A stretch of 63,453 nt of DNA, counting the filler, from Rozella allomycis CSF55 (lineage: Eukaryota): the NCBI GenBank assembly GCA_000442015.1. It is 13 parts of 13 records of this genome, joined end to end, with 100 filler letters (N's around TTAATTAATTAA, not from the genome) between each part and the next. Parts side by side here need not be neighbours in the genome. Positions count along the whole stretch, not along the records: positions 21,209 to 42,186 come from KE560597.1; 12 more parts are not named here. One strand, given 5' to 3'. The position numbers and the translations under genes were made by a program. Positions 2,101-39,288 of the stretch are shown in pieces. The notes beneath the pieces were generated by a model, which was not told the DNA's origin, did not search any database, and worked only from the letters and a program-made list of their open reading frames with translations. Each line of letters begins with the position of its first letter. Position 1 is the stretch's first letter.

Positions 2101-5100
2101 GGCCTTTGCACCAACAGCCCTGGGCCAAGGACAGAATGAAGCGATTTCACGAAAGGATGGAGACCTTTCAACAAGCAAGATGCCGTACTTGTCACGAAAT
2201 GTGGCCTACCCCTGCAGTAGTCCCAGACAACATGGCCGAATATGTCTGTCACAGATGCAAGAAGGATCCGATGAAATTCAGCCTTGAAAACGACATGCTT
2301 CCTAATCCTTCCGCCATTCCGTTGCGAATAAGAAAAATGCTGAAGAACTTGACACCAGTCGAAGAGATGCTGATTAGCCCAGTCCTTCCTATCATGGCTG
2401 TCTACAAGCTGCCTGGCGGACAATCCGTGAGCCGTGGATTCACAGCTAATTTCCGTCAAGATGTGAACGACCTCTGCAAACAACTTCCACGTCTACCGAC
2501 TTGTCTGCCCGTTCTGATTGGGCGTCGCCGTGGGCAACAGAATACATTGCGCGAATGCAAAGTCCGACGAGCCAGGTATGAGATGAATGACATCAATGAC
2601 AGAGTCCTGGCCGTTTTGGAGTTTCTTTGTGAATATCATCCACTCGTCCTTGCTCTCGGGATAGCCATCGAGCACGCAAATCTGTCGCAATTGCCAAAAG
2701 ACAATGTTCTAGACCTAGCTGCTTTAGAAGGCACCGAGGAAGAGATGGAGCAGCTGGATGACATTGCGCGACAAGATTTGGGACCAGAAATGGCTGACCG
2801 AATTCCATGAAGACGCCATGGCTTCTCTGTGCTTCCCCAAGCTCTTTCCCCTCGGAATGGCTGACCCTACACAGCACGCGCGTTTGCAGAAAGTGACAGA
2901 GAGCCAAGGATTTGACCAATTGCTGAGATACGCGGAAGACGATCCCGACAATCCTGACGCCATGTACTACCCGTTCGCCGAGCACTCCCGATTCATGTTT
3001 TGCGCAAATGACAGAGTTCGACGTCATCGCATTCTGTCGCAAAGCAAAATCTTTTTGAAGCAAAATCAGAATGAGGCGAACATGACAGTCGCGGACTTGA
3101 AGAATCTGCTTGGCAGCAATCAGGCATCCGAGTTGATGGATGCGAATGTCGGCATACTCAGCCAATATCACAGGATCTCAGTCATTTAGGTACCATCGGC
3201 GCGTTGAGTTGGAACACATTTTTCTGGAAAAGGTAATCGAGCAATATGCAACGACAGGAACTGTGTTCTGGACTGCTAGCTATTCAGATAATCACCAGAA
3301 TCATTGCCATCGCCTCATGCCTCTTGCAGCGAACACGGCATCTGAACGGTATCGAAATTGCCTGCGCAACCCCCACCTGGTTGACTGGTTTTTTGAAATA
3401 CGTTCGACGGAGTTCCTCAAAGCTCTCTTTGACGATGTTCTGAACGCAGAGTAGACTTGGTTTAGATACGAGTGGCAATCGAGGACTAGCATTCACGCGC
3501 ATGGAACCACAAAGTTCAAGAATGATCCCGGCTTGTGCGAACTGACCACAAAGGCATACGTCGGTCGCTTGATGGAAACTCGTAAGCCAATAACCCCAAC
3601 GCAGTTATCGATCCTACGCAACAAGAGGTGATCGACGCGGGTAAAAATTCATCGAACATTGTCCTGAAGTACGCGCAATGGCTTTTGACCGCCTCAAATC
3701 CCAGAGTAAATCGTGACGAGCACCCTGGTGGAGTACCAGATCCACACCCTTGCTCAAAACGGATTCTGGATATCATTGACGATGCCGCTGCAATGGCACG
3801 GGACTACGAAGAGCTCTGTAACTGTTGTCAAAGACATGTGTGTAGACCCGGAGGCTACTGCAAAAGGAAAAAAGCCCGCGTGAATGGCAAACCGAGTCGA
3901 TTCGACTATCACATGGATCTCTCCGATAAAGCGGAACTTGTCTTCATTGAAACCGACAAGTCTGTTCGGGCAGAGATACGCCTACCGCGTAACGATGAGA
4001 CTTTTAACATCCACAATCGCTTGCAACACCACCATTGGCGTGCGAATGTGGATATGCAAATCATTCTTGACAAACATGCAGCCATACGATACATGGTAAA
4101 GTATGCCAGCAAGGGCGAAAAGGAAAGCGGTCAACTCCAAGACGTGTACAACACTGTGAAAAGAAATGCTAAAGAAGACGATTCGATTCGGCGCACGGGA
4201 AGATGCGCTCACTGATGATAAAGTCTCTGGGCAACCGCGACATTGGAAAAGGAGAAACGTCGCGTCTCCTAATGGGAGGCAGCCACTACAAGTCGCCTTT
4301 CAAATTTACAAAGGTTAACCTGGATCTGGACAGCCGTCGTGTCAACTTGGAAGATGCCGACCCGAATGCCCAAGCCCTCTGCCCGTCAGTACTACAGATG
4401 TTGCCAAATGGAAAACGTTTCTTCTTCAAGCGGCACCTGATGTGCAGCGATACGCAGACTTCTCATTTAACTTGAACCAGCAGCTGGCGCTGGCGAGACA
4501 GGAAGGACAAGATGATGATCCAGCCGAGGCTGAGAACCTTTTGCTTAGAGACGATTGGATGAACTTGGCCGACATGCGTCCCGAGGTACATTTTCAAAAA
4601 TCACGTTCATCTAGATTGAACATGTTGAGATGAACGCACCTGCTGTTAATAATGACCATGACTGGCAAGCATCGCGACAAACCTATTCAGCTCGTGAACT
4701 AGCCGACATGCAAGGATGGCTCGAGAAACATAAACGAACGTCACCGGATGTAGATCGTCCTTTACCTCCAGTCAATAGGGAACACTTGAATGATGGCCAG
4801 CGTCGTGTCTACGATTTGTTGCAAGGTCACTTGTAAGGGAACAAGCAGCTGTTGATGATTGTCAATGGCATAGCGGGCACAGGAAAGTCACACACCGTCT
4901 ACGCCCTCTCCAATCTATTGGCTGACAGGGTCAAACGCTGTGCCTTTACTGCCAAGGCTGCTTACTTGATACATGGCTCCACCCTACACTCTACATTCAA
5001 GCTGCGACCCAACAAGCCTTTCACCAAGCTGAAAGATAATGCGCTTAAACAGCTTAAAGAGACTTTCAAGTATGTCACTACGATTATAATCGATGAGTAC

Positions 5101-6290
5101 TCCATGCGGTCGCAGGAACTCATCGGCTGCATCGACGCGAGATTGCGTCAAGCGAAGAATGCGCAAGATGTCCTGTTCGGTGAAGTGTCTATTCTCTTAG
5201 TCGGCGATCCAGCTCAACTTCTTCCTGTCGGCGGATCTCCTCTCTACTCGGACAATCCCAAGAAGCCCATTTCTACGGCTGGTCGCGACGCTTACGTTGC
5301 ATTCAAGAATGTTGTCAAGCTAGATCAAGTCATGCGACAGCAAAATTGGACGGCGACGCGCTGCAGCAGAAATACATTGTAAGCAGAAACAATAGACATG
5401 TTATTTAGGAACTTCTTTCACGTTTGGCCAATGGTGAGTCGACCGCTGAAGATTGGCGCGTGCTCTTGCCGTTGTCCTTCTGCTCTAAGTCAAGAAGAGC
5501 ACAACACTTTTCAAGACGCCATACGGCTGTTTAGCACGAATGAGAAAGTAGACGAGCACAATCAGCACCAGTTGAATGCGCTTGGCATGCCTATTATCAG
5601 GCTCACGGCGACAAACTCCAATTCTTCTGCCAGGAACTTAAGCTCGAGTAAGTTCAGAGGACTCGAGAATCATCTGTATCTGTGTAAGAATGCTGAAGTC
5701 GTGCTCACGACAAACCTGTGGATCCGAACAGGTTTGGTAAATGGTGCAAAGGGAATCATCAAGGACATCATCTATGCTCCAGGCGATGGTATGGATAAGC
5801 TTCCCAACACATTGCTTGTGCACTTCCCTGACTACGCAGGGTCGCGGTTCTTTCCAGACGAGGCGCGAAGAAACTGGATCCCGATGTCTGTATTATCGGC
5901 GGCTTGTGACTACGGTAGCAACATGAAGAGAATTCAGTACCCATTTCGCCTGGCATATACAATGACGATCCCCAAGGCTCAGGGCCAGACTCTCAAGAAG
6001 GTTGTCGTCGATCGCGGTGACAAGGAAATGTCACTCGGTCTCTCTTTCGTGGCTATATCACGTGCGAAACGCTTGAAGGATATGATTATCATGCCCATGT
6101 CCTTTGACCGTTTAACAAAAATCAAGAACTCCACGTCCATGGGCCCTCGACTTAAAGAGCAAAAGAGGCTTGATGAACTAGTCGCTTCTACACAGCTTCA
6201 GTTTCAAATGCAATAGTTTAAATACACTCGACAGCGTGTCACAACAACTTTAAAATTTATGATTCAGCTTGCTGAATTACTTTTATCTAA
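2101..6290 (+). mobile_element. Helitron, degenerate RepHel (HUH Rep + PIF1 helicase), 5' end lost in gap
   Basis: VEEMLISP motif; WFRYEWQSRTSIHAHG (HUH); YMVKYASK (Y2); GIAGTGKS, IIIDEYSM, GDPAQLLPV, AQGQTL, VAISR helicase motifs; many frameshifts/stops; visibly more GC-rich than host genes. Confidence 0.92.
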
Positions 6291-9970: not shown

Positions 9971-10267
9971 ACATGTAATGCAATGCTGTTTTGTTCTATT
10001 AGTATAGGGTCTTTTAAATAAAGTATAAACTATTCCAATTTCGTCCATCATTTTTTTCCACAAACATATTATACCAATACATTGAATTAAACACTTTTTA
10101 AAAAGAAGGAAACAAAACAAACCTTTATTATCACAATCCAATTTGGGTATGAAAAATGCTTTTCGACNNNNNNNNNNNNNNNNNNNNNNNNNNNNNNNNN
10201 NNNNNNNNNNNTTAATTAATTAANNNNNNNNNNNNNNNNNNNNNNNNNNNNNNNNNNNNNNNNNNNN

Positions 10268-11324
10268 GGTGCCGTTTAGTTTGAAGAACCGAACTGTGGT
10301 GATGATGAACAAGCATTTTCTGTTTCTGCAGCCTGGCAGACGCTGGCATGTGATAGAGAATGCGATCAAGGAGACGTATTTGCCTACTTTCCAATCGTTC
10401 ATGTATGGAGATACGGGAAGATGGAATAAAGAGTTGCAGGATGAGTTTGCGTTTCTAGAGATGACAAGGGGTAATGTGAGTTTCAATAGTTGGGAAATGC
10501 ATGCGGTTGAAGGATGGAGTACTGTTGGGATGTATGTGAGTGATGAGGACCCGGTGTTGCATCCGTGGATGTTGACGAACCATTATTACTGGTATAGACC
10601 TGGGAAGAGGGATGTGGTGTCATCGTATCATGATGGCAATGAGGTTGTTCGATGTTATCCGCTGGCTGTGATTGGAGGAAATGAGGAGAGGGGAATGGAG
10701 CATGAAAGATTGGAGAGGTTTCATAGATTCCAGTGGCAGATGTATAATTTTTATGGGATATATCATGGAAGAGAGACGAGTGAGATATCGTATTGTGTGT
10801 TGGTGCAGGGGCGGGGCAGGAGTGAGATTGTGAATTTGAAGGAGGTTGTTGAGGGGATAGAGGGGGTGTTGAGATTGCGGGTAGTGTATATGGAGAGGAT
10901 GAAGAGTATGGGGGAGAGAATAGAGACGTTTGCGTATAGTAGGTGTTTGATTAGTGCGGATGAGAGTGTGTTTGAGAATTTGTATTTCATGGGAGGCAGA
11001 AGTTTAATTTTAGAGATCACTGGAGGAAGTAGGGGTGAGGAGGTAAGTGGGGGAGATAGAAGTGGGGGAGATAGAAGTGAAGGGGATGGGGATGGGGAAA
11101 TAGGTAGAAGTGAAAGTGAGAGTGATAGACGTGGTAGAACTTCAAGTGATAGACGTAGTAGAACTTCAAGTAAAAGTTATGCCGAAAGAATATCAAATGA
11201 ATTATTTTATCGATATTACAATTTCAAGGCAAAAGTAGTGAGAGATGAGAGTGATCAAATGAACAATCGGGGGATGTATGTGAACATGACAAGATTTATG
11301 CATGACTTTATAAGAATAATATAA
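10268..11324 (+). CDS. Glycosyltransferase family 61-like protein, 5' partial
   Basis: RSEIVNLKEVV...VVYMERMKSMGERIETFAYSRCLIS...ENLYFMGGRSLILEI resembles GT61 C-terminal signature; low-complexity G/D/R/S insert. Confidence 0.55.
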
Positions 11325-11408
11325 ACTAAGTTGAAGGGAAATAAAAAAGTTTTAAATATTAAATATTAATAGTTTTAAACATTAGACTTGTACTCATATC
11401 TATAAAAT

Positions 11409-11530
11409 TACCGATGTTACATCTTTACCGATAATTTATCGGTTTACCGACCTACATTATCGGTAAAGATCGATTTATATCGGTAACAACGGTAATGAGT
11501 GAATTTCGATAATAACGATAAATCGATAAT
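11409..11530. repeat. Nested inverted repeats of an ACCGATAA/TTATCGGT motif
   Basis: Perfect 15-bp IR 11421-11435 / 11456-11470 plus several further copies in both orientations. Confidence 0.75.
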
Positions 11531-11835
11531 AGCGCTTTATTGATTATTGCGAAGTTGACTTTCAGGAATTCCAGTATTTTGCATAATGATTTTCGGGTTT
11601 TTATGGGTGTTTGAGAACCACAATACTTGGTAAAAATAAATTCTAAGGTCTCTTTGTCAAATCATGTAGCTGATTCCGGGTAACTCAGAAAATTCCCATG
11701 ATCAACCCTGGTCTTTATAATTAGAGTCTATCTCCAATATCTCCAAAGCCTATCTTAAACCATATAAGAAGAGCTTCCTGGGGGCTAACCAGGTAAATGG
11801 AAACCCTAACTCTTGACCGCTTGAGAGGCCAAGCG

Positions 11836-12381
11836 ATGGCATACTCGATAATGAAGTTTGATAGCTATGAACGCAAAAAATACGTCATGGCTTCAGATTT
11901 CCTTAAAATGAACTTTGGTAAATGTGTTCTCTAAAACTTTGTAGGTGTTGAAGTTGGAAAAGAAGAGCTTAAAAGAAGAAGAAATAAGTTGATGGAAGAG
12001 TTCAAGAGTGAAGAATTTGATGTAGAGTCTGCTAAAGAGCGTTTGCTAGCTGAGGCAGGGATTGAGGTTGCCCTTTCTGCTAAAGAACAGGGCACCTCAG
12101 ACGAAGCCATTACTTATCTCTTACGACGGGTGGATCATCTATATGAGATGGATAAGAAAATTTTGAATGAGTTGACAACCTTGAAAACTTACTGCATGAA
12201 CAATATCGTGCCACTTGGTGTCACAGGCGCTATAGCTTTATCGCCAGAGGCACCAAAGAGGCTAAAGCAAGATAAAGCTAGGGAAATTTTAAGTGACGAG
12301 CTTACAAAATCTTCAGAGTCCTCGTCTCTCTCCGAAGAGGCATCTACAAGTGCACAAATGGAGCGGGAAGAGAAACAAGAA
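11836..12381 (+). CDS. Hypothetical protein, 3' partial
   Basis: Open frame to the gap, with probable GT..AG mini-intron near 11918-11945; no family recognised. Confidence 0.4.
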
Positions 12382-19333: not shown

Positions 19334-20782
19334 TTATTGGGCGAATTTTCCTATTAGTAATGCAAACATCATGAACAAACTAAAAATACAAAGGGCCATG
19401 GCGGTTATTCTAGTAATTGTATTTTTCTTTTCTGAGATGACAAAAAGGGCACAGGGAAACATGATAGAAATAAAGTTAGATGCAGTAGCGCCTGTCAATT
19501 CAACCAAAAGATCAATGCTAGTAGCGACCATAGCCAAACCATAAGTAGTAAGTGCTAAGCCCAAACTAACAACAATTCTTGTACGACTTTCATTCCAGAA
19601 ATGAGATTTTATGACATTTTCAGAAGATAAAACTTTTTCAAATCCAGCATTTTTGCCGTCCTTAGAGCTTCGATATGACTTGTATGCTTTGACCAAAGAA
19701 AAGAAACTATCTCTCATTGGATGAGTTTGATTTGGATAGCAAGTTGTAACAAGAATAATCAAGCAAAGACGTCCAATAAGTAAAGAAATGAGGTTTGGAT
19801 CATAAGTTTTCAAAATGACAGAGAAAGAATACGGAAAAAATTCCGGGTCTGGGCTAGAAGCATAGTCTGCGAAAATCATTTGATTGGAAGTTTGAGAACC
19901 AAGTGTCAAGTAACCGAATATACCAACAATTAAATAGACACAACCAGCAAACATAGATGAGAATATTGCAGATAAAGTTCCTCTTTGTATCGACCTTGGC
20001 TCGCTTAATTCGTTGTAAACCTTGAACATATTTTGTTGACAGGTAAATGCAAAAATTAAATAAGACATGCAGCTTAGAATTCCACCAAATGACAAATCAA
20101 TCTTTTTTGTTCCAATGTTTTCAAACAAGCTCAAAGCATTTAAACCAGCATCTTTGAATCGCATAACAGCATAAGTGACAACCAAGCAGAAAATATACGT
20201 AATCATCATAATAGCAAGATAACTTGTATAGCGTAATGAACGGAGACTCTTTAAAGTAGAAAGAAAAGCAACAAAAATGAAAAACAAGGAAATCCAAAAT
20301 TCCCTTCTTTCCAGAATTGTATTAGCGATGGTACTTCCAGAAATAGCAGCTGCGTCGTTTACAATCTTTGGCATATTGCTTCCGATTAACACCAAGTAAG
20401 ATGTAGCAACACCAAAGGCCTGGATCAAAACAAAAGCATCTACAAATTGTTTGCCCATAGGGAATTTCACTCTGCAGACTTCAGCAAAACTCGTATTTCT
20501 TCCGCCAACAACTTCAGCTAATCGCAGGATTAATCGAAGTGTGAAAACTGCTAATATGATTCCGAGGAAAGTGATAAAGATTCCAGCGTATAAACCGACT
20601 TGTTGATAAGCGTATGGGATAGTTATAAGACCTGCACCGATCATGGTGTTGATGAGTGAAAGTGTTCCAGACAAAACTGTTCCTTTAGCGTCTGTTGACA
20701 TTATTGTATCATCGGACTTGTTTGCGCTGGACATGGAATGAATTTCCGGATCTCTTATAGTTGCTTTGACTTGTTCTTTCAT
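19334..20782 (-). CDS. AAAP/AVT-family amino acid transporter (Avt5/6/7-like)
   Basis: LINTMIGAGLITIPYAY, FAFTCQQN, multiple TM helices; start placed at MKEQVK, ORF extends upstream to 21037. Confidence 0.9.
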   Translation of the reverse strand: MKEQVKATIRDPEIHSMSSANKSDDTIMSTDAKGTVLSGTLSLINTMIGAGLITIPYAYQQVGLYAGIFITFLGIILAVFTLRLILRLAEVVGGRNTSFAEVCRVKFPMGKQFVDAFVLIQAFGVATSYLVLIGSNMPKIVNDAAAISGSTIANTILERREFWISLFFIFVAFLSTLKSLRSLRYTSYLAIMMITYIFCLVVTYAVMRFKDAGLNALSLFENIGTKKIDLSFGGILSCMSYLIFAFTCQQNMFKVYNELSEPRSIQRGTLSAIFSSMFAGCVYLIVGIFGYLTLGSQTSNQMIFADYASSPDPEFFPYSFSVILKTYDPNLISLLIGRLCLIILVTTCYPNQTHPMRDSFFSLVKAYKSYRSSKDGKNAGFEKVLSSENVIKSHFWNESRTRIVVSLGLALTTYGLAMVATSIDLLVELTGATASNFISIMFPCALFVISEKKNTITRITAMALCIFSLFMMFALLIGKFAQ

Positions 20783-21208
20783 AGGATCAAGTGTAACTGT
20801 GTGGCTTAGCGGTCGTGGCGTCCTATTTATGAGTATCACCTGACCTGTTAAACAAGGGTTTTTCTGAGAAAATTCAGGTATGTGACTATCAGGCTTCACC
20901 GTAGTGACCACAACTAAGTTGTAAAATGCATAAACCAGTCGCAATATTGCATGTCGAGTGTCAGTCATGCGACTAAAATTAGAAAATAGCGCAAGTTTTA
21001 TTTTAAGATTTGTGCCAATTTTAGACCACATGTCCATCTTTCACTTATTATGACTTAACTTGGAACTTGTGATAACAACAGAATAAAATATTGGACACGC
21101 TACAATCTNNNNNNNNNNNNNNNNNNNNNNNNNNNNNNNNNNNNNNNNNNNNTTAATTAATTAANNNNNNNNNNNNNNNNNNNNNNNNNNNNNNNNNNNN
21201 NNNNNNNN

Positions 21209-21780
21209 CCATTGCACTAATTCGATTCTCGCATTCTTTAATTCAAATAATATAACAGTGCTTCTACTTCCATCAAACATGACAAGCGTCATGCAACCAC
21301 TTGACGTCGGGTGCAACCAGCCCTTCAAAGCATATTGTAGGCAGGACTGGGTTTCAAATGAATTCAATAGACGCTTTAAAAATCTTAGCAAATTGAATCC
21401 AAAGGAAGAACGAAGAAGATTAGGTGAAAGAATTGTAAATGCTACCTCGAAGATTTCGTAGGAAACGATCTTAAACTCATGGAGGAAGACAGGGAAGCTA
21501 CAATATAATAAATAAATAAATAAATATATAATTCTTATTAAACTTCTTAATTTATTTTATTCATTTAATCACGATTGCTTTCAACCATCCGCAACATTTA
21601 TGCGCAAATCTTCCTTCTTCATGAATTTCAGTAACTTGAATTANTAATCTTAGCAAATTGAATCCAAAGGAAGAACGAAGACGATTAGGTGAAAGAATTG
21701 TAAATGCTACCTCAAAGATTTCGAAGGAAACGATCTTAAACTCATGGAGGAAGACAGGGATGCTACAATAATAATAAATA
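21209..21780 (+). mobile_element. pogo/Tc1-mariner DDE-1 transposase 3' fragment (two N-joined variants)
   Basis: LLLPSNMTSVMQPLDVGCNQPFKAY and ETILNSWRKTG; first copy has a stop at 21459, second has AAG there. Confidence 0.85.
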
Positions 21781-22160: not shown

Positions 22161-22337
22161 NTTCACAACAACGGCTTCTTCAAGTGTTCGTGGTGTCCTT
22201 TCTATTTTAAAAGAATCTTACTTTTACCACTCAATATTATTGAATATTCACAAACCAATATTGGATTGATTTCCAATGACTTTCCACAAACTTCGTGTTC
22301 CGAGCAGCTTCGCCCATTTGAGCCCTTCTTNGTTGAA

Positions 22338-23184
22338 CTAGATAGAAAAACGAAAACTTTTAGAGCCAGCGGATCGCAAAAATTTTGGTTTATTTAGTTG
22401 GCCGGATCGCAAGTTTCCAAATTTCATATGTACAATTGGTGTATCTTTTGGTAGTCGGATAATCTCGTATCGGTGTTCATCGAGTTCGGGTCTTGTATTG
22501 TTTTCGTTGATTTCGTTCAAGATGGAAAGACGTATATCTTTGGCGGTTGAATGCTTTGAATAGAGTTTGTTGAGGTATGCTGATATCATGTCTGAAAGGA
22601 TCTCCCGGTCCAACTTTTCATAGTCTGCTGGAATCACATTGGTATCTACGAGATATGACAGAAACTTCGTATCTTCTCTCTCCACGTCTTCATCTTCATC
22701 GTCATCCTCTTCAGTAATGTTTTCATTGGTATTATCAAAATCCTGTTGTCCGTCTGGCGACACATTAAATGGCTCCGGGGTTATCGTCTTTACTTTTCGC
22801 GACTCAACAATCATCAACGTACCAACCCATATAGTAAAAAACCCCGTTATCAATTCCTTTTCTTGGACTTCCGATATCAATCGTGCAAACAGTTCCATTA
22901 CTTTCAAATCCATGAAATGTCCCGGAAAGATTGCTGAAACTAGTCGCCTCAAACCTGCAGCTTCATAGATAGTCTTTAAAAGTCGNCGGTCCCGGAAAGA
23001 TCGCCGAAACTAGTCGCCTCAAACCTGCAGCTTCATAGATAGTCTTTAAAAGTCGGGAATTTACCGCAATTTCTCCATTGTCTGGGCTCGGGGAGTTGCC
23101 GCCAATCTTTGAAAGTGACGAATTGGCGGGCATAGAGTATATGGCAGTTAAGAGGACAATTAGGATTAGTAAAATATGTTTCAT
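22338..23184 (-). CDS. Secreted acidic orphan protein A, copy 1
   Basis: Signal peptide MKHILLILIVLLTAIYS-MP; near-identical to 23827-24603; N-joined duplicate at 22986. Confidence 0.7.
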
Positions 23185-23334
23185 CTTTCTAATCTCCTGT
23201 GGCGGTGTCTATCAATAACTATCAAAGTGTCAATCGAATGGTGGCTTGGGCGATCTCAGTTGTCGGATCCGAGAATACAAAAGAGGTATCCAATATTCTA
23301 ATTAATTGTTATTGATGCTTTTGCTATGAGTTTA

Positions 23335-23551
23335 TTAAATGATTTCAAATTCTTCGTTTTCAATGTTGATTTCTTCAAAGTCTTCAACAAGCTGCTCTTC
23401 GTCGATTTTTACAGGACGATCTTTCTTCATATCCTTCATTTCCACATTCATATCAAACTCTTGAATAGAATCTGCCAATGTATCTATTTCACCCTTTTCA
23501 TTGCAGTCACGCAAAGCCATACTTTCGGCAAGAGTTTCGATATTCGATTTG
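23335..23551 (-). pseudogene. 5'-truncated copy of secreted protein B
   Basis: Nearly identical to the 3' half of 24747-25169, with a 6-bp deletion and no signal peptide. Confidence 0.75.
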
Positions 23552-23826
23552 TGTTGAGTTACACAAGCTAATCTTGGATACAATCTTCAAAGGTTATGTT
23601 TTTGTAACGAAAACATGAATGGAAATTACTCTTATTGCTTTATCATTTTTACTAAATAAATTTTAACCCTGGCTCTAAAAGTTTTCGTTTTTCTACCTAG
23701 TTCAACACAACAACATAGAATGAAGTTTGAAACTCCCAAGCCGCTAGCAAAGTATGGAAAGGCCGCCTTTCACGCTCACAAGCTAATCTTGGATACAATC
23801 TTCAAAGGTTATGTTTTTGTGTTGAA

Positions 23827-24603
23827 CTAGATAGAAAAACGAAAACTTTTAGAGCCAGCGGATCGCAAAAATTTTGGTTTATTTAGTTGGCCGGATCGCA
23901 AGTTTCCAAATTTCATATGTACAATTGGTGTATCTTTTGGTAGTCGGATAATCTCGTATCGGTGTTCATCGAGTTCGGGTCTTGTATTGTTTTCGTTGAT
24001 TTCGTTCAAGATGGAAAGACGTATATCTTTGGCGGTTGAATGCTTTGAATAGAGTTTGTTGAGGTATGCTGATATCATGTCTGAAAGGATCTCCCGGTCC
24101 AACTTTTCATAGTCTGCTGGAATCACATTGGTATCTACGAGATATGACAGAAACTTCGTATCTTCTCTCTCCACGTCTTCATCTTCATCGTCATCCTCTT
24201 CAGTAATGTTTTCATTGGTATTATCAAAATCCTGTTGTCCGTCTGGAAGTACCGAAAATGACTCCGGGGTTATCGTCTTTACTTTTCGCGACTCAACGAT
24301 CATCAACGTACCAACCCATATAGTAAAAAATCCGGTTATGAAATCCTTGTCCTGGACTTCCGATATCAATCGTGCAAACAGTTCCATTACTTTCAAATCC
24401 ATGAAATGTCCCGGAAAGATTGCTGAAACTAGTCGCCTCAAACCTGCAGCTTCATAGATAGTCTTTAAAAGTCGGGAATTTACCGCAATTTCTCCATTGT
24501 CTGGGCTCGGGGAGTTGCCGCCAATCTTTGAAAGTGACGAATTGGCGGGCATAGAGTATATGGCAGTTAAGAGGACAATTAGGATTAGTAAAATATGTTT
24601 CAT
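23827..24603 (-). CDS. Secreted acidic orphan protein A, copy 2 (258 aa)
   Basis: Intronless ORF; signal peptide then MP; acidic tract EEDDDEDEDVE. Confidence 0.8.
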   Translation of the reverse strand: MKHILLILIVLLTAIYSMPANSSLSKIGGNSPSPDNGEIAVNSRLLKTIYEAAGLRRLVSAIFPGHFMDLKVMELFARLISEVQDKDFITGFFTIWVGTLMIVESRKVKTITPESFSVLPDGQQDFDNTNENITEEDDDEDEDVEREDTKFLSYLVDTNVIPADYEKLDREILSDMISAYLNKLYSKHSTAKDIRLSILNEINENNTRPELDEHRYEIIRLPKDTPIVHMKFGNLRSGQLNKPKFLRSAGSKSFRFSI

Positions 24604-24746
24604 CTTTCTAATCTCCTGTGGCGGTGTCTATCAATAACTATCAAAGTGTCAATCGAATGGTGGCTTGGGCGATCTCAGTTTTCGGGTCCGAGATATCATT
24701 ATTCAATAAATAATTAAAAGTTATTGATGCTTTTGCTATGAGTTTA

Positions 24747-25169
24747 TTAAATGATTTCAAATTCTTCGTTTTCAATGTTGATTTCTTCAAAGTCTTCAAC
24801 AAGCTGCTCTTCGTCGATTTTTACAGGACGATCTTTCTTCATATCCTTCATTTCCACATTCATATCAAACTCTTGAATAGAATCTGCCAATGTATCTATT
24901 TCACCCTTTTCATTGCAGTCACGCAAAGCCATACTCTCGGCAAGAGTTGGTCTTTCGATATTCGATTTGATCTCACGGAAAGCTGTTGTTTGACATAGTT
25001 CATCTCTTATCATAGCATACCACTTTTTGGATTCCTTTTCGACATTGAAAGTTGATTGCGGATTGTTCGGGTTTCCATACGCTGATTTGTACTGGATTGC
25101 TGGTTCGAGAATAGGCATAGTAGAGACCATGACGGAAGTTATAAGTATCATTAAAAATGGGCCTTTCAT
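24747..25169 (-). CDS. Secreted acidic orphan protein B
   Basis: MKGPFLMILITSVMVST-MP; SNIERP motif; acidic tail. Confidence 0.75.
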   Translation of the reverse strand: MKGPFLMILITSVMVSTMPILEPAIQYKSAYGNPNNPQSTFNVEKESKKWYAMIRDELCQTTAFREIKSNIERPTLAESMALRDCNEKGEIDTLADSIQEFDMNVEMKDMKKDRPVKIDEEQLVEDFEEINIENEEFEII

Positions 25170-25261
25170 TTTGGTGGCTTCAACCACGTTCAATCCAATT
25201 GAGTGATGTAACCATCTAATGATAAAAACAAACTTTGTTATTTTTGATAACTTTTATTAAA

Positions 25262-25852
25262 TTAATCGACTGGTTCAAGTTCTAATCCGCTAAGATCAAT
25301 AATCTGGTCAAGGAAATCTTCATCATCATCAACATTGTCATCGTTTTCGTCGTCAATGTCTTCTTCCATTTGAATACCAGAGTCTGAGTCTGAATCAGAC
25401 AATAATTCTGTGTCAGAATCTCCGTTGAGCGAATCCGGTACGAATGGAATAATGAATTGATTAGTACTATTCATGTCGATGAAACTTGGCAATTCATTTT
25501 GATTATGGGCCAGATTTGAGGTTGTGTTTTCTTCATTGTTCTCTTGATTCACCCCCTGAGCTGTTTTATTTGAAACTTCTTCTATATCTGCTTCGACAGT
25601 TGGTAGATTTTTGTTATTTAATACTTGCTTGTCTTTTGAGCCAAGATAACGGAGATGTAAGCTGGTTATAGCTTCGAGGATTCTGAGCGAAAGTATTTTC
25701 GATTGAAAAGCCAGATCATCTATGCGATCCAAGATCTTCTCGATGCTAGACGGCTGGTCCAGAACGTCATAGTAGGAAACCGGAAGAACCTTTGCAGGCA
25801 TACTGTTAACCCAAGCAGTGCAAAATATAAAAAGTAGCAAGAAACGTTTCAT
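25262..25852 (-). CDS. Secreted acidic orphan protein C
   Basis: MKRFLLLFIFCTAWVNS-MP..SYYDVLD; D/E-rich tail. Confidence 0.78.
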   Translation of the reverse strand: MKRFLLLFIFCTAWVNSMPAKVLPVSYYDVLDQPSSIEKILDRIDDLAFQSKILSLRILEAITSLHLRYLGSKDKQVLNNKNLPTVEADIEEVSNKTAQGVNQENNEENTTSNLAHNQNELPSFIDMNSTNQFIIPFVPDSLNGDSDTELLSDSDSDSGIQMEEDIDDENDDNVDDDEDFLDQIIDLSGLELEPVD

Positions 25853-25995
25853 CGTGTGGCTATGCAACATGCTTCGGTGTGCAAGGTAGTCAGTCACCTG
25901 TCAACTGCCATTTAGTAATTGATTAATCATGAAATCAAATCAAGATAATTAATTTGACATTACAAAATCTTTTAACTTTTATTATGAAATGGCTA

Positions 25996-26529
25996 TCATT
26001 TATCTTTGGAGTTTGGACTATTTGCATTCAAAGTAATATACTTTTGCGAATCTTCAATCACGTCAATCTTAGTATACCTCTCGTCATCAAAATCCAAAAT
26101 TAATGGGAATTTATGGTGGTCTGGACCTTGGATCTGTGGCCTCTCAATATTTCCTAATCTACCTTTCCTAAACCACATTATATCTCTGTCTCTAGCACCT
26201 CTGTTCATAAATCTTCTAATACAAGATTCCAAAAACTCCATAAAATATGCTCTCAATGCTGACTTTGCATCATTCTTGATAGTGTACCAAATATCGGCCA
26301 TTGTCAAACTGCCGCCATCAAAGTAGCTTGATATGTATTTAATAAATAAAGGCACGATTCTATTTAGAATATAGCCACTATTATTTGATAATAGTTGGAG
26401 AAAATTTGTGTTGCTGGAAGCTTTTGGGAAAATGTTGTCTGAACAGTCATAAATGGAGCTAGGCTTTCTGATGGGCATGGTTACAATCGTAGAAGCAAGT
26501 AGCAGAGTGAATAGAAATCTTGCTTTCAT
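25996..26529 (-). CDS. Secreted orphan protein D
   Basis: MKARFLFTLLLASTIVT-MP..SIYDCSD; GNIERP motif. Confidence 0.78.
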   Translation of the reverse strand: MKARFLFTLLLASTIVTMPIRKPSSIYDCSDNIFPKASSNTNFLQLLSNNSGYILNRIVPLFIKYISSYFDGGSLTMADIWYTIKNDAKSALRAYFMEFLESCIRRFMNRGARDRDIMWFRKGRLGNIERPQIQGPDHHKFPLILDFDDERYTKIDVIEDSQKYITLNANSPNSKDK

Positions 26530-27066
26530 TACGCGGCTTAGTAAATTTGTGTGGCTTGTATTATTGGATCTAATAATAAGAAACGTCTTTATTGCTATTA
26601 TTAACAAACTTAGAAGACAAAAATTAAAAACCAGCACCTTATTGACTCCTATGAGAGAAGTCTGTTGCAACCAAAACAAAAATAGATCCTTTTCAGTTTT
26701 AAATTCTAAAAGAGAGTCATAAATATAGTCCCTACAATGGGACTATAAATACTCCAAGTGACCAATTGTCAATTTCCATTATTGATTGGTGAGAGTCTGC
26801 GACAGAATTCAATTCCAAATATTGATTGGATAGTACCAATAATTTTTGGCGCCCGAAATAGCCATAACAAGGATATATTCAACTGGGATGCATTCATGGA
26901 AAGATTTTAAACATTTGACTAGCAAGGAGTTCAGGATTCCCAAAGGTTTTCAATATTATTTTTGAGCAGCCCCTTTGTGACCCATTTTTTTCAAGGACTA
27001 CTTTTCAGGCACGCATTTGGTTCTCTGAACCTTGATAAATTTTAAATAATGTTCTAAATAGTTTAT

Positions 27067-27789
27067 TTAATTTCGCACCAAAGCCTGACTCCCACCAGAC
27101 TGGTATTCCAAAGCATCATGGAACATATCTTCTGGCGCATCAAAAAACACGTCATCTTCATCATCGCTTTGATCGTTTAATTCAATCATGAAAGGCTTTT
27201 GCATCGTTTGAGTACGTGAATAAGGGATTCTTTTAATCACAGCATCTTCATCATCCCTTTGACCGATTAATTTAATCATCAAAGGTTTTTCCATTTTCTC
27301 GACGTTGGAATTTGTGATTCCATTCATGGATCTCAATTCAAAATCTTGGCTGTCATTATTGTCTCTTTGATCGTTTAATTCAATCATCAATGGTTTTTCC
27401 ATTTTCTCGACATCAGAATTAGTTATTCCTTTCATGGATCTCAATTCAAAATCTTGACTTTCATTGTTGTACTTTTTGACGTATGAATTTAAGAGTTTTA
27501 AGACATAGTCTGTCCATGATGACGTCTTGTTACTTTTAATTTCGCTGGATGGCGAGTCCTCAGAGTCGTTTGGTTTTGATTTTTTGAGAAAGCTGCCAAA
27601 GAATTCTATGATTGGAGAAAGAAGATTTTGAAGAAAGTCGTTGCTGAACTGTGAAATTGAGTCGTTGTTTGAAGTGAAGCAATAGTCTATGATAGATTTG
27701 TCATCTAGGATGTCGTAGCATGATCTTTTGATTGGAACGGTAGCGATTGAGGATGCGATGAGAGCAGTGAAAAGAATTTTTGATTTCAT
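27067..27789 (-). CDS. Secreted acidic orphan protein E with internal 36-aa repeats
   Basis: MKSKILFTALIASSIAT-VP..SCYDILD; repeats at 27361-27468 and 27253-27360, partial third copy. Confidence 0.8.
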   Translation of the reverse strand: MKSKILFTALIASSIATVPIKRSCYDILDDKSIIDYCFTSNNDSISQFSNDFLQNLLSPIIEFFGSFLKKSKPNDSEDSPSSEIKSNKTSSWTDYVLKLLNSYVKKYNNESQDFELRSMKGITNSDVEKMEKPLMIELNDQRDNNDSQDFELRSMNGITNSNVEKMEKPLMIKLIGQRDDEDAVIKRIPYSRTQTMQKPFMIELNDQSDDEDDVFFDAPEDMFHDALEYQSGGSQALVRN

Positions 27790-27963
27790 TTAGATAGTGG
27801 CTTGGTGTCAGCAACTATATATGGGTTAACCTAAAAATAGATAGATGTAAAAATAGAAAATAGCCCAGATGTAAAATTAATAGATTTTAGAAAAGAAAAT
27901 AGATAGACGTAAAAATAGATTTCTTAGAATAGAGTAGATTGCAAAACAAGTTTATTTCACTTC

Positions 27964-30900
27964 TTATGTTAACTTGAGGGTAACTAGTAATTTCTTATTC
28001 TTGTTACTAATTTGGGTTGTAGATTTTCTCTTTTTCTGTTTCTTTGTAAATTTATCAAATGGATTGTCATTGACTTTACCTTTCCCTTTGTCAGTACTTT
28101 CACCTTTACTTTTCCCTTTATCAGTACTTTCACCTTTAGTCTTCCCCTTTTCTGCTCCCTTCTCAACTCCCTTTCCCTTCTCTACTCCCTTGCTATCTTT
28201 GAGTTTATCATTGTCATCATTTCTTCTTCTCTCTTCCATTTTCTGTAACAGTTGCAATTCCAATTCTTCATCATCTAATAAAAGCGACATTATTTCTTTT
28301 TTAGATTCTTGTTTGAATTCACCGCCAGCAATGACCACTTTTTGAATTTGATCTTTTTGGTTTGCTCTTTGCAGGATTCTCTCTTCGATTGTATTCTTGC
28401 AGATTAAACGGTAGACGGTGACTTGCTTTGTTTGACCTAGACGATGTGCTCTGTCCATTGCCTGTTAGTGAGAATAAATTGGATTACTTGTTGATCAACA
28501 GTTGGATTCCAATCTGAATCAAAAAAGATGACAGTGTCTGCAGCAGTTAAATTGATGCCAAGACCACCAGCTCTAGTTGACAAGAGAAAGATGAAAATGT
28601 CAGGGTTTGATTGCCAATCATTTACTAGATCTCTTCTGTCGGATATTTTAGTTGAGCCATCTAATCTAAGATATTTGAATCTTCTAAAGTTCAAGTAGTC
28701 TTCCAAGAGATCAATCATTCTCGTCATTTGATTGTAGATTAAAACTCTGTGGTTGTTTGATTTTAATTCAAATAAAAGTTTATCCAAGTATGATAATTTT
28801 CCAGAATCATTTATGAATTTTAAAAAGTTTGGAGAATTTATTGGATTAATTTGTTTACAATCAAAATCTAAAAGTTTAGAATAAAATATTTCATTGAAAT
28901 TAAATGAATTCAACAAACTTTGATTATTAATAAAATTCATACTAGAACAAGTTAATGTTATTGGAGGGGCTAAACATTTTGGCACCAATGGATTCAATCT
29001 TTTCAAAGCAGTCTCAACTGTATAAGATGTGATATCTAAGTTAGAGAGAGTAGTGAGACTATTAGAGAGACTAGTTGAAGTAGTGGTGTAATTGATAACA
29101 CTTAAACTACTATCACTGTTACTATTACTATAACTCTCATCACTACTACCTTCAATGTGTTGTTCATGTCTGAGATGTTTAATTATATCAATTGGCTCCT
29201 TTGTTATTAATAAATTCTTATCACTAGAATTCATTTCAACACAATTATATAAAAGCTTTGGAAGATGAAATTGAATTGGATTTTCATTTTGAAATAAACA
29301 ATTTGATTCAATTGGAACATTTCTACTAAAGATGAATGGAGAAACAATATTAGATTTTTCAAATAGATCTGGATGATTACATACCTTTCTAAATTGCATT
29401 ACCAGATTCATCAAATAAGAATCATCATTTGATTTATTAATTAGATCCTTTAATGACATTTTATTCTTCAATGATTGATACATTTTCTTTTGCTTTAAAC
29501 TAGAATTCACTTTAACTTCAATTTCAATCTTTTCACCCAACTCATGCTCAACATCCTTCTTCACTCGTCTCAACATGAATGGCTTCAATATCATATGAAG
29601 TCTATTCAACTGATTATCATCCAAAGAACTATTATTCTCTGCATGCGACTCAATGTCCTTGGAAAACCATTCACTAAACTCATCATGCGAATCAAACAAC
29701 GTTGGCATAATAAAATGAAGCAACGCCCACAACTCTTGCATCGAATTCTGTATTGGCGTTCCTGTAATCAATAATCTATTCCTACAGTTAAAATTCAACA
29801 ATGTCTTCCATCTAACACTACTGCTACTCTTAATCGCATGCGCTTCATCCAACACCATACACTGCCACTTCAATCTATTAAAATACTTTTCATCTTGAAC
29901 AACTATTTGATAGCTAGTTATCAACACATGAAACGATGATTCTTTTTGATACAAATTCTTCAAATTCCAAAACTTTCTCAATGTTTTTCTATCACTAATA
30001 GTCCCCCAATATGGCAACGTCTATATCAATCTCTACAATATTCTTACTTTGAATTCTGGCGTAAATTTAGTAAATTCTTGTTGCCAATTATGAAGCGTTG
30101 ATGCTGGCGCTACAATCAAAAATGGTCCCCATATATTATGCTTCTCTGCTAAATGAGCCAGAAATGATATTGATTGAACTGTCTTTCCTAATCCCATATC
30201 ATCTGACAACACTCCATTAATCCCCTGCTCATACAAATTAACAAGCCAATTCAATCCCTTTCTCTGATATGGCTTCAATTCACACTGTAACATTCTTGGC
30301 TGTTCCACTTGCAAACTTATCTCTTCTACTCTATTGCCTCTCTCTTCATCAAACGCTCTTGTTTTCATTTGTTGCTTTTCTATTGCCATCTGTGCTTGTT
30401 CCTTTGCCTTTTCTTTCAACTGTTCATCACTCAACTCGTCAAAATTTATAACTTTTAAATCACTTGAAGCCACGGTATGATTATTTAAACCCTTTGTATC
30501 ACTACTTGAACCCTTTGCGTCACTGCTACTAGCTCCCTTCTCTTCTCCTACAACTCGCTTGCCTATGAAATGCGAATACAACTCTGTCTGCGTAATCAGA
30601 AAATTCAACTTTTTAGCTTGTCTTTTGGCTTCCCTTATCTCTTCCTCCTTTTTCCTCCTCTCAATCGCATCCTTGGCACTCTTCTTTCTCAATTCCTTTT
30701 CCTCCTTTTCATTTCTTCTCCAAAAAGACAACATCTGATCATTCCCCTAAATTCATCTTACATCTCTACTAGCCTTCTTGGCCCTCAAATTAGGATCTCT
30801 ATTCACCCAAATAAACCTCTGGAAATTTCTCTTCACTTCCTTTTCACACAACGTTGAAACCCTTTTATTAGTCAACGTCTTTGTATTCGTAAACTGACTC

Positions 30901-31696
30901 ATAGCCTTGGATGCCTACTCTCATCAATCTCTTCTATTTACCCTCGGGATTATCCTTCTCGTTATATTCTGCCAAACCCTCTTCTGTCGAGTCTCCACAT
31001 CCATCACCTCATTCTCCTCCTCATTCATCTCTTCCTCTTCAACATCCTTCATATGGTCAATCGGAACTTCTTCTGGAGGTATCACCAACTCAACAACAAC
31101 ATTCTTTTTCTTTTCAACCCTACGGTCCACAATCTTCTCAACCTCCACAACTTTATCCCGCGCTCCAATCTCAGACCTCCTCAATGCCCTCCTACTACTC
31201 CTCACAGGTGTCTTCCCACCAACACTCTCTCCCTCATTTAACACTCCAGCAACCGCCTCCACAACAGCCGCACTCTTAACAACACTCTCCCTCCTCATCT
31301 CATCCTCACTCCCAACATCGCCCTCATAAAACCCCAACTCTCCCAGCCTCTCAATACTCTTCTTCAGCCGCTCCTTGGATTCCTACCCAATCACACTCAA
31401 CTCCTTACCTCAAACCACACACTCTCCTCCTCCACCAGCTTCGCCGCCCTGCTCTCCCGTCGCGATATATACCGCGCAAGCAAATCCATCTGCAACTCAT
31501 CCTCCGCTACACTCATCCCTACACTCTTGTCCCCTTCATGCCATTCAGCTAAATACGTCCAATCCCCGTGCAAGTTCTCATACGGGATACACGTATGCGC
31601 ATACTTTGTCGTAAACGGGATTTTATACTGCAATGTTAAACTCAACTGCTGCTCTAGTGACTCCAACTGCGCAATCGTTGCCTTGGCCTTTTTCAT
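27964..31696 (-). CDS. INO80: INO80 chromatin-remodelling ATPase, multi-exon
   Basis: [66 protein letters not shown]; 5' exon structure approximate. Confidence 0.95.
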
Positions 31697-31819
31697 GTAA
31701 CAAGGGTCATCGTTCTGGTCAAAGTAATGACAATAACAGTGCAGAATATTGATGAGATATTTGTAAGATAATTAGAGATTTTAATCGCTTTATTTAATAT
31801 TAAATAAACTGATAGTGCT

Positions 31820-32989
<1,170 letters not shown>

Positions 32990-36399: not shown

Positions 36400-37458
36400 A
36401 TGAAATTTAGAAAAACAAAGTCTTTTCCCCTAAAATTGGCCATTACCCTGATTCTCACTGTTTTAATATTAATTCAACTTAATATTAATAGCAAAATAAA
36501 AGTTGGCGAGTACAATATTGAAAACAGGTATGAATCATCGCAAATTGATGTAAATGACACCACTGAACAATTTTCACGCGTTTCAAGCTACCTTCGAAAA
36601 TTTTCAAAGTCTTCAAAAGAAGTATTCTTAACGGATGAAGAATTTAGAATATTCCTTAATAGTAAATTCAATGGAACCGGATTGCTGCCGTACAAAGGCC
36701 GAATGCTTTACAACAGCAGTGATATTTTATTTATTGTCATGGGCTCTAAAGCTAAGAGACATCGATCAGTTATAGCAAAAAACACGTGGCATCAATGGGC
36801 TGAAAAGATCATCATTTTTGGTGATGAGATGGATCTTAACATCAATATGGTAACTCTATCAGATCTAAAAGGGAAATGGAACTATACTGACGCACAACAT
36901 AGACAACTTAAGGGAATGAAATGGTTACATGAGAATCGCACTAATCTCACAAAAACATGTAAGTGGATCATGCTTGTAGATGATGACACATGGGTAAATG
37001 TACCTGCTACAATCCACTTTTTGTCACAATATGATTCCCGATTGTTGACAGCTTTTGGCTACATTTGGGATAAACTTTTCGAAAAGGATGAAGCATTTCA
37101 TAGCGGCGGTGCCGGAATTATACTTTCATATCCGGCGTTTTCAAAAGTTTCAGACTCATTGTACACTGACAAATGTCCTTTTATGGATTGGAATGACGTC
37201 ACAATAGCCAACTGTCTTTATCGCACTGGTGTATTTAAAGTGCATGTAAACAGGATGCATCCGCTGAAGCCTAGTGAATTAGACTTAAGGCAAATGTTGA
37301 ATTTTTATCCTGAATTAACAATTCACGCCATAGAAAATGAAGATCTCTATGTCAACTTAACATGCGAAGCCGCCTTTCATTATCACTATCCCGTTAATAA
37401 CAATCTCTGCAATAAATACATTCCTCATTCCAATAGAATAAACGCTATGATTGATTAA
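36400..37458 (+). CDS. Fringe-like GT31 glycosyltransferase, paralog 1
   Basis: N-terminal signal anchor; KWIMLVDDDTWVN; HSGGAGIILS; NDVTIANC. Confidence 0.85.
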   Translation: MKFRKTKSFPLKLAITLILTVLILIQLNINSKIKVGEYNIENRYESSQIDVNDTTEQFSRVSSYLRKFSKSSKEVFLTDEEFRIFLNSKFNGTGLLPYKGRMLYNSSDILFIVMGSKAKRHRSVIAKNTWHQWAEKIIIFGDEMDLNINMVTLSDLKGKWNYTDAQHRQLKGMKWLHENRTNLTKTCKWIMLVDDDTWVNVPATIHFLSQYDSRLLTAFGYIWDKLFEKDEAFHSGGAGIILSYPAFSKVSDSLYTDKCPFMDWNDVTIANCLYRTGVFKVHVNRMHPLKPSELDLRQMLNFYPELTIHAIENEDLYVNLTCEAAFHYHYPVNNNLCNKYIPHSNRINAMID

Positions 37459-38182: not shown

Positions 38183-39288
38183 ATGAGACATACTTTCGCG
38201 ATCATCGTATATATCATACTATTTATTGGATTAAGTTTATTATATTACAATAAATTCAAAATTAATAAAGTAAAGACATTTATGTCAATTGATTCAAGGA
38301 TTCCGATTTAGCTCTATTGAAACTCAATGAAACCAATACAAATAGAGTAAACATTCTTTACAATTGGGAGGATTATTTTGTACCAGGGAAGAGAAGTTTG
38401 GCATTTGATATTCCATCTTCAATAGTGTTTGTTTCACAAAAGCTCTATAGAATCGCGAAACAATCAAAAAGGTCTTATTTGCTTGATGTCGATCTCAATT
38501 ACCGTTTAAATCATGAATTAAATGGAATTGGAATGATGGATCCAAATTTCTTGAAGATAAATGAAATAATGTTTATTGTAATGGGTTCCAGTAGAAACAA
38601 AGAAAGAATTCTGAACCACAAAAAATTTTGGTATAAATGGACCGACAATATATTTATTTTTGGAGATGAAAGAGACGAAGAAACTGGCATGATAACTCTA
38701 CCAGAACTGAAAGGGAAACCAACACTCGCAGATGCTCAGCATAGGCAATTGTATGGCATGAGATACATTTTAGAAAACATGCCCCATTTAGTTGAAAGAT
38801 GCAAATGGTTTGCTTTAATTGATGATGACACTTGGGTAAATATACCTGCTATTGTCCCGTATCTGGGAACGTATAACCATCTTCTTCCTGTTGCCTTCGG
38901 CTATGTCTGGGATAATTTACATGTTCCCGAAATCGCATTTCTTGGTGGCGGCGGTGGAATATTCTTGTCTAAAACTTCTTTTATACGGGTATCGCAAGCA
39001 TTGTACTCTAAAAGATGCTATTTTTGGAGTGCAAATGATCTAACTATTTCTAATTGCTTATACGAATTAGGAATTCTCAAAGTACATTCTTCTCTCTTTA
39101 ACTCGGATCCGCCAAATTCAATCTATGGCAGGCAGATATTTGATCTAGTCACTAAGCTAACATTCCATCGAATAGTGTCCCTCGAAAAGGTAATGGCGTT
39201 AACATGCGAGATGTCCTTACATTATCATTATTATCTAGACAGTTGTGTAAACTATAGATCCACCTCTTTTGTATCCCAGATATTATGA
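38183..39288 (+). CDS. Fringe-like GT31 glycosyltransferase, paralog 2
   Basis: Exon 1 signal anchor MRHTFAIIVYIILFIGLSLLYY (alt ATG 38174), intron 38270-38298 joins in frame; KWFALIDDDTWVN; GGGGGIFLS. Confidence 0.85.

Follow-up and report, generated by a model that had tools for sequence, protein, structure and literature searches.

A tandem cluster of small orphan genes with a shared signal-like leader in Rozella allomycis CSF55: candidate proteins of the host-parasite interface

Rozella allomycis, a fungus that lives as an obligate endoparasite of water moulds (host Allomyces), belongs to the Rozellomycota, sister to Microsporidia. Within the lineage neighbouring Microsporidia, Rozella has been studied best. 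The question raised by the locus described here is whether a run of small neighbouring genes in strain CSF55 encodes one family of proteins that the parasite sends to its host. The genes lie at positions 22338-27789 of a stretch of 63,453 nucleotides (nt) joined from 13 parts of assembly GCA_000442015.1 (hereafter the window), in the part taken from KE560597.1. A preliminary description of the window had noted five co-oriented open reading frames (ORFs) plus duplicates, and this arrangement was recovered: A to E each start with ATG and follow one another on the minus strand, and the duplicates A2 and B2 were present at 22338-23536. Gene A (23827-24603) encodes 258 amino acids (aa), gene B (24747-25169) 140 aa, gene C (25262-25852) 196 aa, gene D (25996-26529) 177 aa and gene E (27067-27789) 240 aa, all on the minus strand. 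Overall, A-E would represent a lineage-restricted, locally duplicated cluster of small secretory proteins exported to the host-parasite interface, a reading for which we consider the chances evenly balanced.

The evidence that carries this reading is at the N terminus. All five proteins begin with MK and have a 17-residue leader followed by [M/V]P at residues 18-19, which is MP in A, B, C and D and VP in E only (leader of E, MKSKILFTALIASSIAT). The leaders had been called signal-like, and all five are indeed shaped like signal peptides, with a -3/-1 site that consistently falls at 17|18. Residues 2-5 include one or two K/R in every case, and residues 1-17 are free of acidic side chains; 16-22 consecutive residues are uncharged, position -3 (residue 15) is I/V and position -1 (residue 17) is S/T. 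By inspection of these features, all five leaders conform to the n-h-c arrangement and the -3/-1 rule, with modest hydrophobic cores in D and E. A leader with N-terminal positive charge, a hydrophobic core and small -3/-1 residues directs import into the endoplasmic reticulum (ER) and is removed by signal peptidase. The leader methionine was the first in-frame ATG in four genes, while C had a second ATG six codons upstream; in the public protein collection, C begins at MKRF.

A regular expression of the leader (MK-x3-[LIVF]-x9-11-[ST][MV]P) was searched across the whole window, in its 1076 stop-to-stop ORFs of 30 aa or more (63,144 residues). Six matches were found, namely A, A2, B, C, D and E, and none outside the cluster. 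The motif S-x-Y-D-x-x-D, previously reported from three of the genes, had three matches in the same ORF set, all in C (SYYDVLD), D (SIYDCSD) and E (SCYDILD, residues 23-29), within residues 23-32. It sits 6-9 residues past the predicted cleavage site in these three proteins and is missing from A and B. Since the matches to both patterns were confined to the cluster genes, the leader pattern is regarded as real and not a product of chance.

The upstream regions of the five genes also had sequence in common. In the 130 nt upstream of each gene, AGCCAC and TTAATT were the only hexamers present in all five, and none of 100 shuffles yielded any common hexamer. AGCCAC was located on the minus strand at 27797-27802 for E (7 nt upstream of the ATG), 26551-26556 for D, 25856-25861 for C, 25174-25179 for B, 24660-24665 for A and 23241-23246 for A2. 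Its start lies at -9 to -13 in B, C and E, at -27 in D and at -62 in A, and D additionally has AGCCGC 3 nt before the ATG (26533-26538, minus strand). TTAATT, likewise on the minus strand, starts at -91 in E (27875-27880, converted from the offset), -98 in D, -100 in C, -96 in B and -114 in A; it is weaker evidence than AGCCAC because it is an AT-rich motif within AT-rich DNA. A total of 26 AGCCRC sites were counted in the window, of which seven fall within 56 nt before the leader ORFs. Among the other 19, one precedes an internal ATG of a transporter ORF and the rest stand before ORFs of at most 34 aa or before none.

Elsewhere in the window just one AGCCAC stands in front of a long reading frame; this is the transporter site (20801-20806, minus strand), which is followed after 18 nt by an internal ATG (MKEQVK...). 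The amino-acid transporter ORF at 19334-21037 encodes 567 aa, and its library model has 544 aa.

The proteins had been described as acidic, which stood for four of the five: the mature parts of A, B, C and E have isoelectric points (pI) of 5.0, 4.37, 4.05 and 4.47 and an aspartate plus glutamate content of 17-24%, but the mature part of D is basic (pI 9.05). The acidic residues lie in the centre of A, in the C-terminal half of B, with a pI of 4.05, and in the tail of E, and the tail of C is very acidic. Cysteines number 0-2 per protein. Gene E also contains three 36-aa repeats, corresponding to 108-nt units (repeat family D4) at 27155-27460. Structure prediction with AlphaFold2 gave no confident model, the mean predicted local distance difference test score (pLDDT) being 41.3 for D aligned with E and C and 39.0 for A alone. 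Both low-confidence models are helical in the N-terminal or middle region, with an unstructured tail, and their pLDDT is too low for a fold search. The mature parts are probably helical towards the N terminus and end in a mostly acidic, disordered tail.

No characterised family was recognised, in line with the earlier view of the proteins as orphans: Pfam was blank for A, B, D and E, and C had a sub-threshold match only. That match, to Cwf_Cwc_15 (PF04889), scored 23.7 bits over the acidic region, below the 30.4-bit gathering threshold, and was read as compositional bias; C as a Cwf15 protein was rejected. A was also considered as a membrane protein and rejected, its best 19-residue hydropathy past the leader (1.28, residues 87-105) being unconvincing.

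Whether A-E form one family of five was tested on the mature parts, and the claim held in part. D and E were homologous by sequence, with 24% identity over 156 aa in blastp (E-value 8.5e-9 in a five-protein database) and a Smith-Waterman score of the mature parts that was matched by 3 of 500 shuffles, but the mature parts of A, B and C had no significant similarity. By these alignments D and E are demonstrably paralogues. Within the mature sequence C appears joined to D and E via the short S-x-Y-D-x-x-D motif alone, and A and B appear joined to the others by leader, upstream motifs and adjacency only. We read the pattern as a 5' module (promoter elements, leader and cleavage site) that was probably inherited by duplication, with rapid divergence downstream of it.

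For export, the proposed course of events is as follows. The common 5' module, with TTAATT near -95, AGCCAC shortly before the ATG, a predicted 17-residue signal peptide and predicted [S/T]|[M/V]P cleavage, is kept among the genes. The leader would drive co-translational import into the ER and would be cut at 17|18, and the proteins would then leave the unwalled parasite plasmodium for its compartment within the host cytoplasm. A wall-less parasite that exports by the default route would deliver the proteins directly to the host-parasite interface, where they may act on the host or on the interface itself, probably by short-motif or charge-based binding and not by catalysis. We infer an effector role of the A-E proteins from this course of events.

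In several effector families a conserved motif follows directly on the signal peptide, among them the RXLR-dEER proteins of oomycetes, the PEXEL proteins of Plasmodium and the Y/F/WxC proteins of powdery mildews. The Rozella proteins resemble these in having a putative signal peptide, a short N-terminal motif and then a divergent body, and differ in the sequence of the motif, in the presence of S-x-Y-D-x-x-D in three of five members only and in the tiny size of the family. In Ustilago maydis, clusters of secreted orphans are induced in the host and their deletion affects virulence. The present cluster is similar in its tandem, co-oriented array of small, putatively secreted proteins without known domains and in its hints of co-regulation (here the shared upstream motifs), whereas host induction and an effect on virulence are known for the Ustilago clusters and the Rozella cluster is described here from its DNA sequence.

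Closer in descent are the host-exposed proteins of Microsporidia. In Reinke et al. 2017 (PMC5423893), the microsporidian host-exposed NemLGF families are defined by at least 10 members per species, and their arrival in the host was shown by proximity labelling. They share with A-E an intracellular parasite of the Rozellomycota/Microsporidia lineage, signal peptides (putative in A-E), the lack of known domains, restriction to a species or genus, and adjacent members, as local duplication would produce. Against at least 10 members there, five genes and two partial copies were found in the window. Host-exposed microsporidian proteins likewise look small, disordered, acidic, lineage-specific and locally duplicating (PMC5423893), a likeness that may support export by analogy. 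There is no sequence similarity to the NemLGF families, the profile search with D, E and C having matched nothing outside the locus. That search returned pieces of C, D and E only, so that the cluster falls short of a large family in the microsporidian sense; unannotated further members could exist, the library models of the locus being truncated. Overall, tandem arrays of secreted orphan proteins are well known from parasites, and this family is without detectable relative or description in the searched literature.

An extension of the same analogy concerns the segment after the cleavage site. The sequence [M/V]-P-(I)-(basic) followed by S-x-Y-D-x-x-D might be a rozellid host-targeting or processing signal, with the leader and AGCCAC marking a wider set of effectors, which we consider very unlikely. 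If true, the segment would carry secreted proteins across the host-derived membrane into the Allomyces cytoplasm, as PEXEL or RXLR does, and the wider effector set would be largely unannotated, the gene models having cut off the leaders.

Several results weigh against the export of A-E as one family. The hydrophobic cores are weaker in D and E, with a best 10-residue Kyte-Doolittle mean of 2.25 and 2.07, and both fall below a crude filter of 2.4. The bodies were found to be highly diverged, as had been stated at the outset, the scores of the nine other mature-part pairs being matched by 46-327 of 500 shuffles. When the leaders only (residues 1-24) were compared, seven of ten pairs scored above the shuffles (0-5 of 500), but C-D (36/500) and C-E (63/500) did not, and likewise A-B (17/500); this control is lenient, since the shuffled sequences also lose the overall form of a signal peptide. 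A hidden Markov model (HMM) built from D and E failed to find C (E-value above 10), and an HMM of D, E and C picked up leaders only, in A2 (E-value 0.33) and B (domain E-value 0.24). In addition, the family is small, and no further member was found in the protein libraries.

The alternative that survives best is that A-E are secretory proteins serving the parasite itself, as part of the zoospore cyst coat, an appressorial adhesive or the resting-spore wall, or in the lumen of the ER, Golgi or vacuole. The leader evidence applies to such proteins in the same way, and an acidic composition with 0-2 cysteines and probable disorder (pLDDT 39-41) would also fit matrix or wall proteins. A parallel exists in Microsporidia, where polar-tube and spore-wall proteins are products of fast-evolving, signal-peptide-bearing, clustered structural genes. 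Pfam showed no wall-binding, chitin-binding or wall-type repeat architecture in A-E, which counts against this use, and we regard it as possible and somewhat doubtful. The effector role and the parasite's own use of the proteins are not separated by anything in the data.

A further alternative is that the cluster is not one family, D and E being paralogues and A, B and C unrelated orphan neighbours whose leaders are alike only as signal peptides generally are. It would account for the lack of significant similarity among mature parts other than D-E and for the failed HMM tests. Comparison of A with the D/E/C profile in hhalign aligned the leader alone (residues 1-22, P-value 0.0049, probability 7%), and B aligned over residues 1-27 only (P-value 9.2e-4, probability 23%); in the latter alignment MPILEPAIQY of B was paired with MPIRKPSSIY of D, so that the similarity between B and D reaches residue 27. 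The resemblances NIERP/NTRP/MEKP and LDEHRY/FDDERY, which had been put forward as further family marks, were present but at chance level, as 328 of 1000 shuffled sets shared some exact 5-mer. The HMM of the three MEKP/MQKP repeats of E found none of A-D among the 1076 ORFs, and a C-terminal motif of the form E[RK]P...R[DY] (NIERP/MEKP/DEHRY) was rejected as unsupported by the shuffles and the repeat HMM. The best ungapped block of all five sequences was an acidic run. Against separate origins stand an identical leader length and [ST][MV]P at residues 17-19 in five of five genes and nowhere else in the window, the presence of AGCCAC before every one of the five (no hexamer was common to all in any of the 100 shuffles), the S.YD..D link of C to D and E, and the co-orientation and adjacency of all the genes. 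We hold this alternative to be unlikely, and a common secretory family remains the preferred description of A-E.

By codon usage, A-E look like real genes. A codon log-odds model was trained on seven Pfam-supported ORFs of the same window, and per-codon in-frame log-odds were 0.11-0.22 for A-E compared to 0.14-0.26 for the seven reference ORFs, while all 25 alternative frames of A-E gave at most 0.001. ORFs of at least 140 codons made up 48 of the 1076 in the window (30-49% GC), and five of them are the adjacent, co-oriented A-E. One 2408-nt DNA contig of run X2 spans 24906-27313 with 0 differences to the locus. RNA run X13 gave only two short low-complexity pieces, from which no inference was drawn. 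That some or all of the ORFs are non-functional, as decaying duplicates or chance ORFs near repeats, is most improbable: B2 is truncated, A ends within a repeat arm, A2 reads as broken and the changes between copies or variants are mostly non-synonymous, but only the read frame has coding-like codon usage, five adjacent co-oriented ORFs of at least 140 codons occur together (rare as that length is in the window), contigs of independent runs match the locus and the break in A2 falls at a single N flanked by a duplicated overlap.

The duplicates point to recent copying within the cluster. A2, a near-identical tandem copy of A (22338-23184, minus strand; repeat families D1, D2 and D7), and B2, which repeats the 3' part of B but has no leader (23299-23536, minus strand; repeat family D3, 99%; a 61-aa ORF at 23335-23520), belong to a tandem repeat of A and the 3' part of B at 22332-23536, with a period of 1412-1489 and 99-100% identity. 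The duplicate pairs are 22332-22631 and 23821-24120, 22989-23274 and 24408-24693, and 23299-23536 and 24711-24948 (99-100%). A contig of run X1 makes a back-joint from 24719 to 23308, which matches a tandem duplication. Between A and A2 there are five synonymous and six non-synonymous codon differences, and run X5 contains a variant contig of C, at lower depth, that differs at four synonymous and eight non-synonymous codons within 127 nt; these changes are a rough sign of weak constraint or diversification and not a test of it. A2 is interrupted at one N (22986), on either side of which the same 67-nt overlap occurs, the piece 22332-22985 being bounded by single Ns, and the break is probably an assembly artefact.

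Dispersed-repeat DNA lies between B2 and A (23556-23826), with inverted-repeat arms and a 44-nt direct repeat (repeat families D9 and I2). Contigs of runs X1, X2 and X5 pile up here and continue into unlike sequence, and this DNA marks the junction of the tandem duplication. The arms of the inverted repeat I2 are at 23669-23717 and 23810-23858, and one of them supplies the last approximately 10 codons and the stop of A. The cluster had been said to abut transposon DNA, and on the left flank a remnant of a DDE_1 (pogo-type) transposase was located at 21279-21461 on the plus strand, among near-identical repeats split by single Ns; its match is sub-threshold (E-value 4.5e-4, 20.3 bits against the Pfam cut-off of 22 bits).

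The genes had also been described as intronless. The ORFs are continuous, but the library models excise in-frame GT..AG stretches of 21 nt in A and 36 nt in D. A search with the D+E+C profile against 1,835,955,588 proteins gave three matches, P0004, P0005 and P0006, all of them pieces of this locus. P0004 (sources NCBI/UniRef) is an exact match to C, the only member that is full-length in the public protein collection. P0005 corresponds to residues 119-238 of E with a different end, and P0006 to residues 77-177 of D minus 12 residues, where the excised DNA begins with GT and ends with AG. The only protein retrieved with A as query was P0007 ('hypothetical protein O9G_004741 [Rozella allomycis CSF55]'), from the same locus. 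It starts at M18 of A without the leader, lacks seven residues (the 21-nt GT..AG stretch) and fuses A by splicing to the truncated copy B2. Three of these four library models (P0005, P0006 and P0007) thus have no leader, and the exact sequence of B is not in the public protein collection.

Further searches did not extend the family. D had no relative in a word-indexed collection of 5.8 billion proteins, scans of metagenomes with E and D singly gave no relative, and ESM Atlas gave no usable match with D and A. In sequence searches of the PDB the best E-value was 0.19 for the D/E/C profile, and A had no match. As regards clade specificity, no relative outside the locus was found in the protein, profile and metagenome searches. 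A full-text literature search found no description of the family or the locus tag, the original genome paper and its supplements lying outside its scope.

Other features of the window were as follows. Immediately upstream of gene E, an INO80-type SNF2 ATPase (DBINO, SNF2-rel_dom, Helicase_C) is spread over at least three ORFs at 27964-30734 on the minus strand, presumably separated by short introns or breaks of the frame. Two Fringe-like glycosyltransferase ORFs are present at 36400-37458 and 38533-39288, both on the plus strand, with a SIP1/gemin2-like gene between them on the opposite strand. At 2136-6216 (plus strand), ORFs with DUF6570 (E-value 6.2e-20) and a PIF1-like helicase (E-value 3.9e-18) have 47-49% GC compared to approximately 33% around them, and this region resembles a Helitron-type element that is now split among several ORFs. 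Extreme GC skew in 2-kb bins was observed at 10001-12000 (+0.38), 30001-32000 (-0.47) and 48001-50000 (-0.56); the last bin overlaps a 485-aa ORF (48389-49846) with a weak filament-like match only.

With regard to the assembly, a contig of run X5 skips 104 nt in the region between D and E (26719-26824), and other contigs end in loose sequence at 26719 and 26756; this looks like an indel or a small inserted element that is polymorphic between samples. Gaps of a fixed form (44 N, 12 bases and 44 N) were present at 12 places in the window, for example 2001-2100, 21109-21208 and 60290-60389. There are also 17 single Ns in the window, several of which (21644, 22161, 22331 and 22986) are flanked by near-identical duplicated sequence and look like unmerged contig overlaps; some of the 'repeats' and 'broken' genes here would therefore be assembly artefacts.

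Finally, the finding bears on how the secreted proteins of Rozella are counted. Since three of four library models start downstream of the leader and the exact sequence of B is absent from the collection, secretome surveys and counts built on such gene models would overlook the cluster, and perhaps similar ones elsewhere. The leader together with AGCCAC offers a simple handle for re-screening the genome. The full-text literature search found no paper on protein-level manipulation of the fungal host by Rozella, and the locus provides a concrete, testable set of candidate host-interface proteins.

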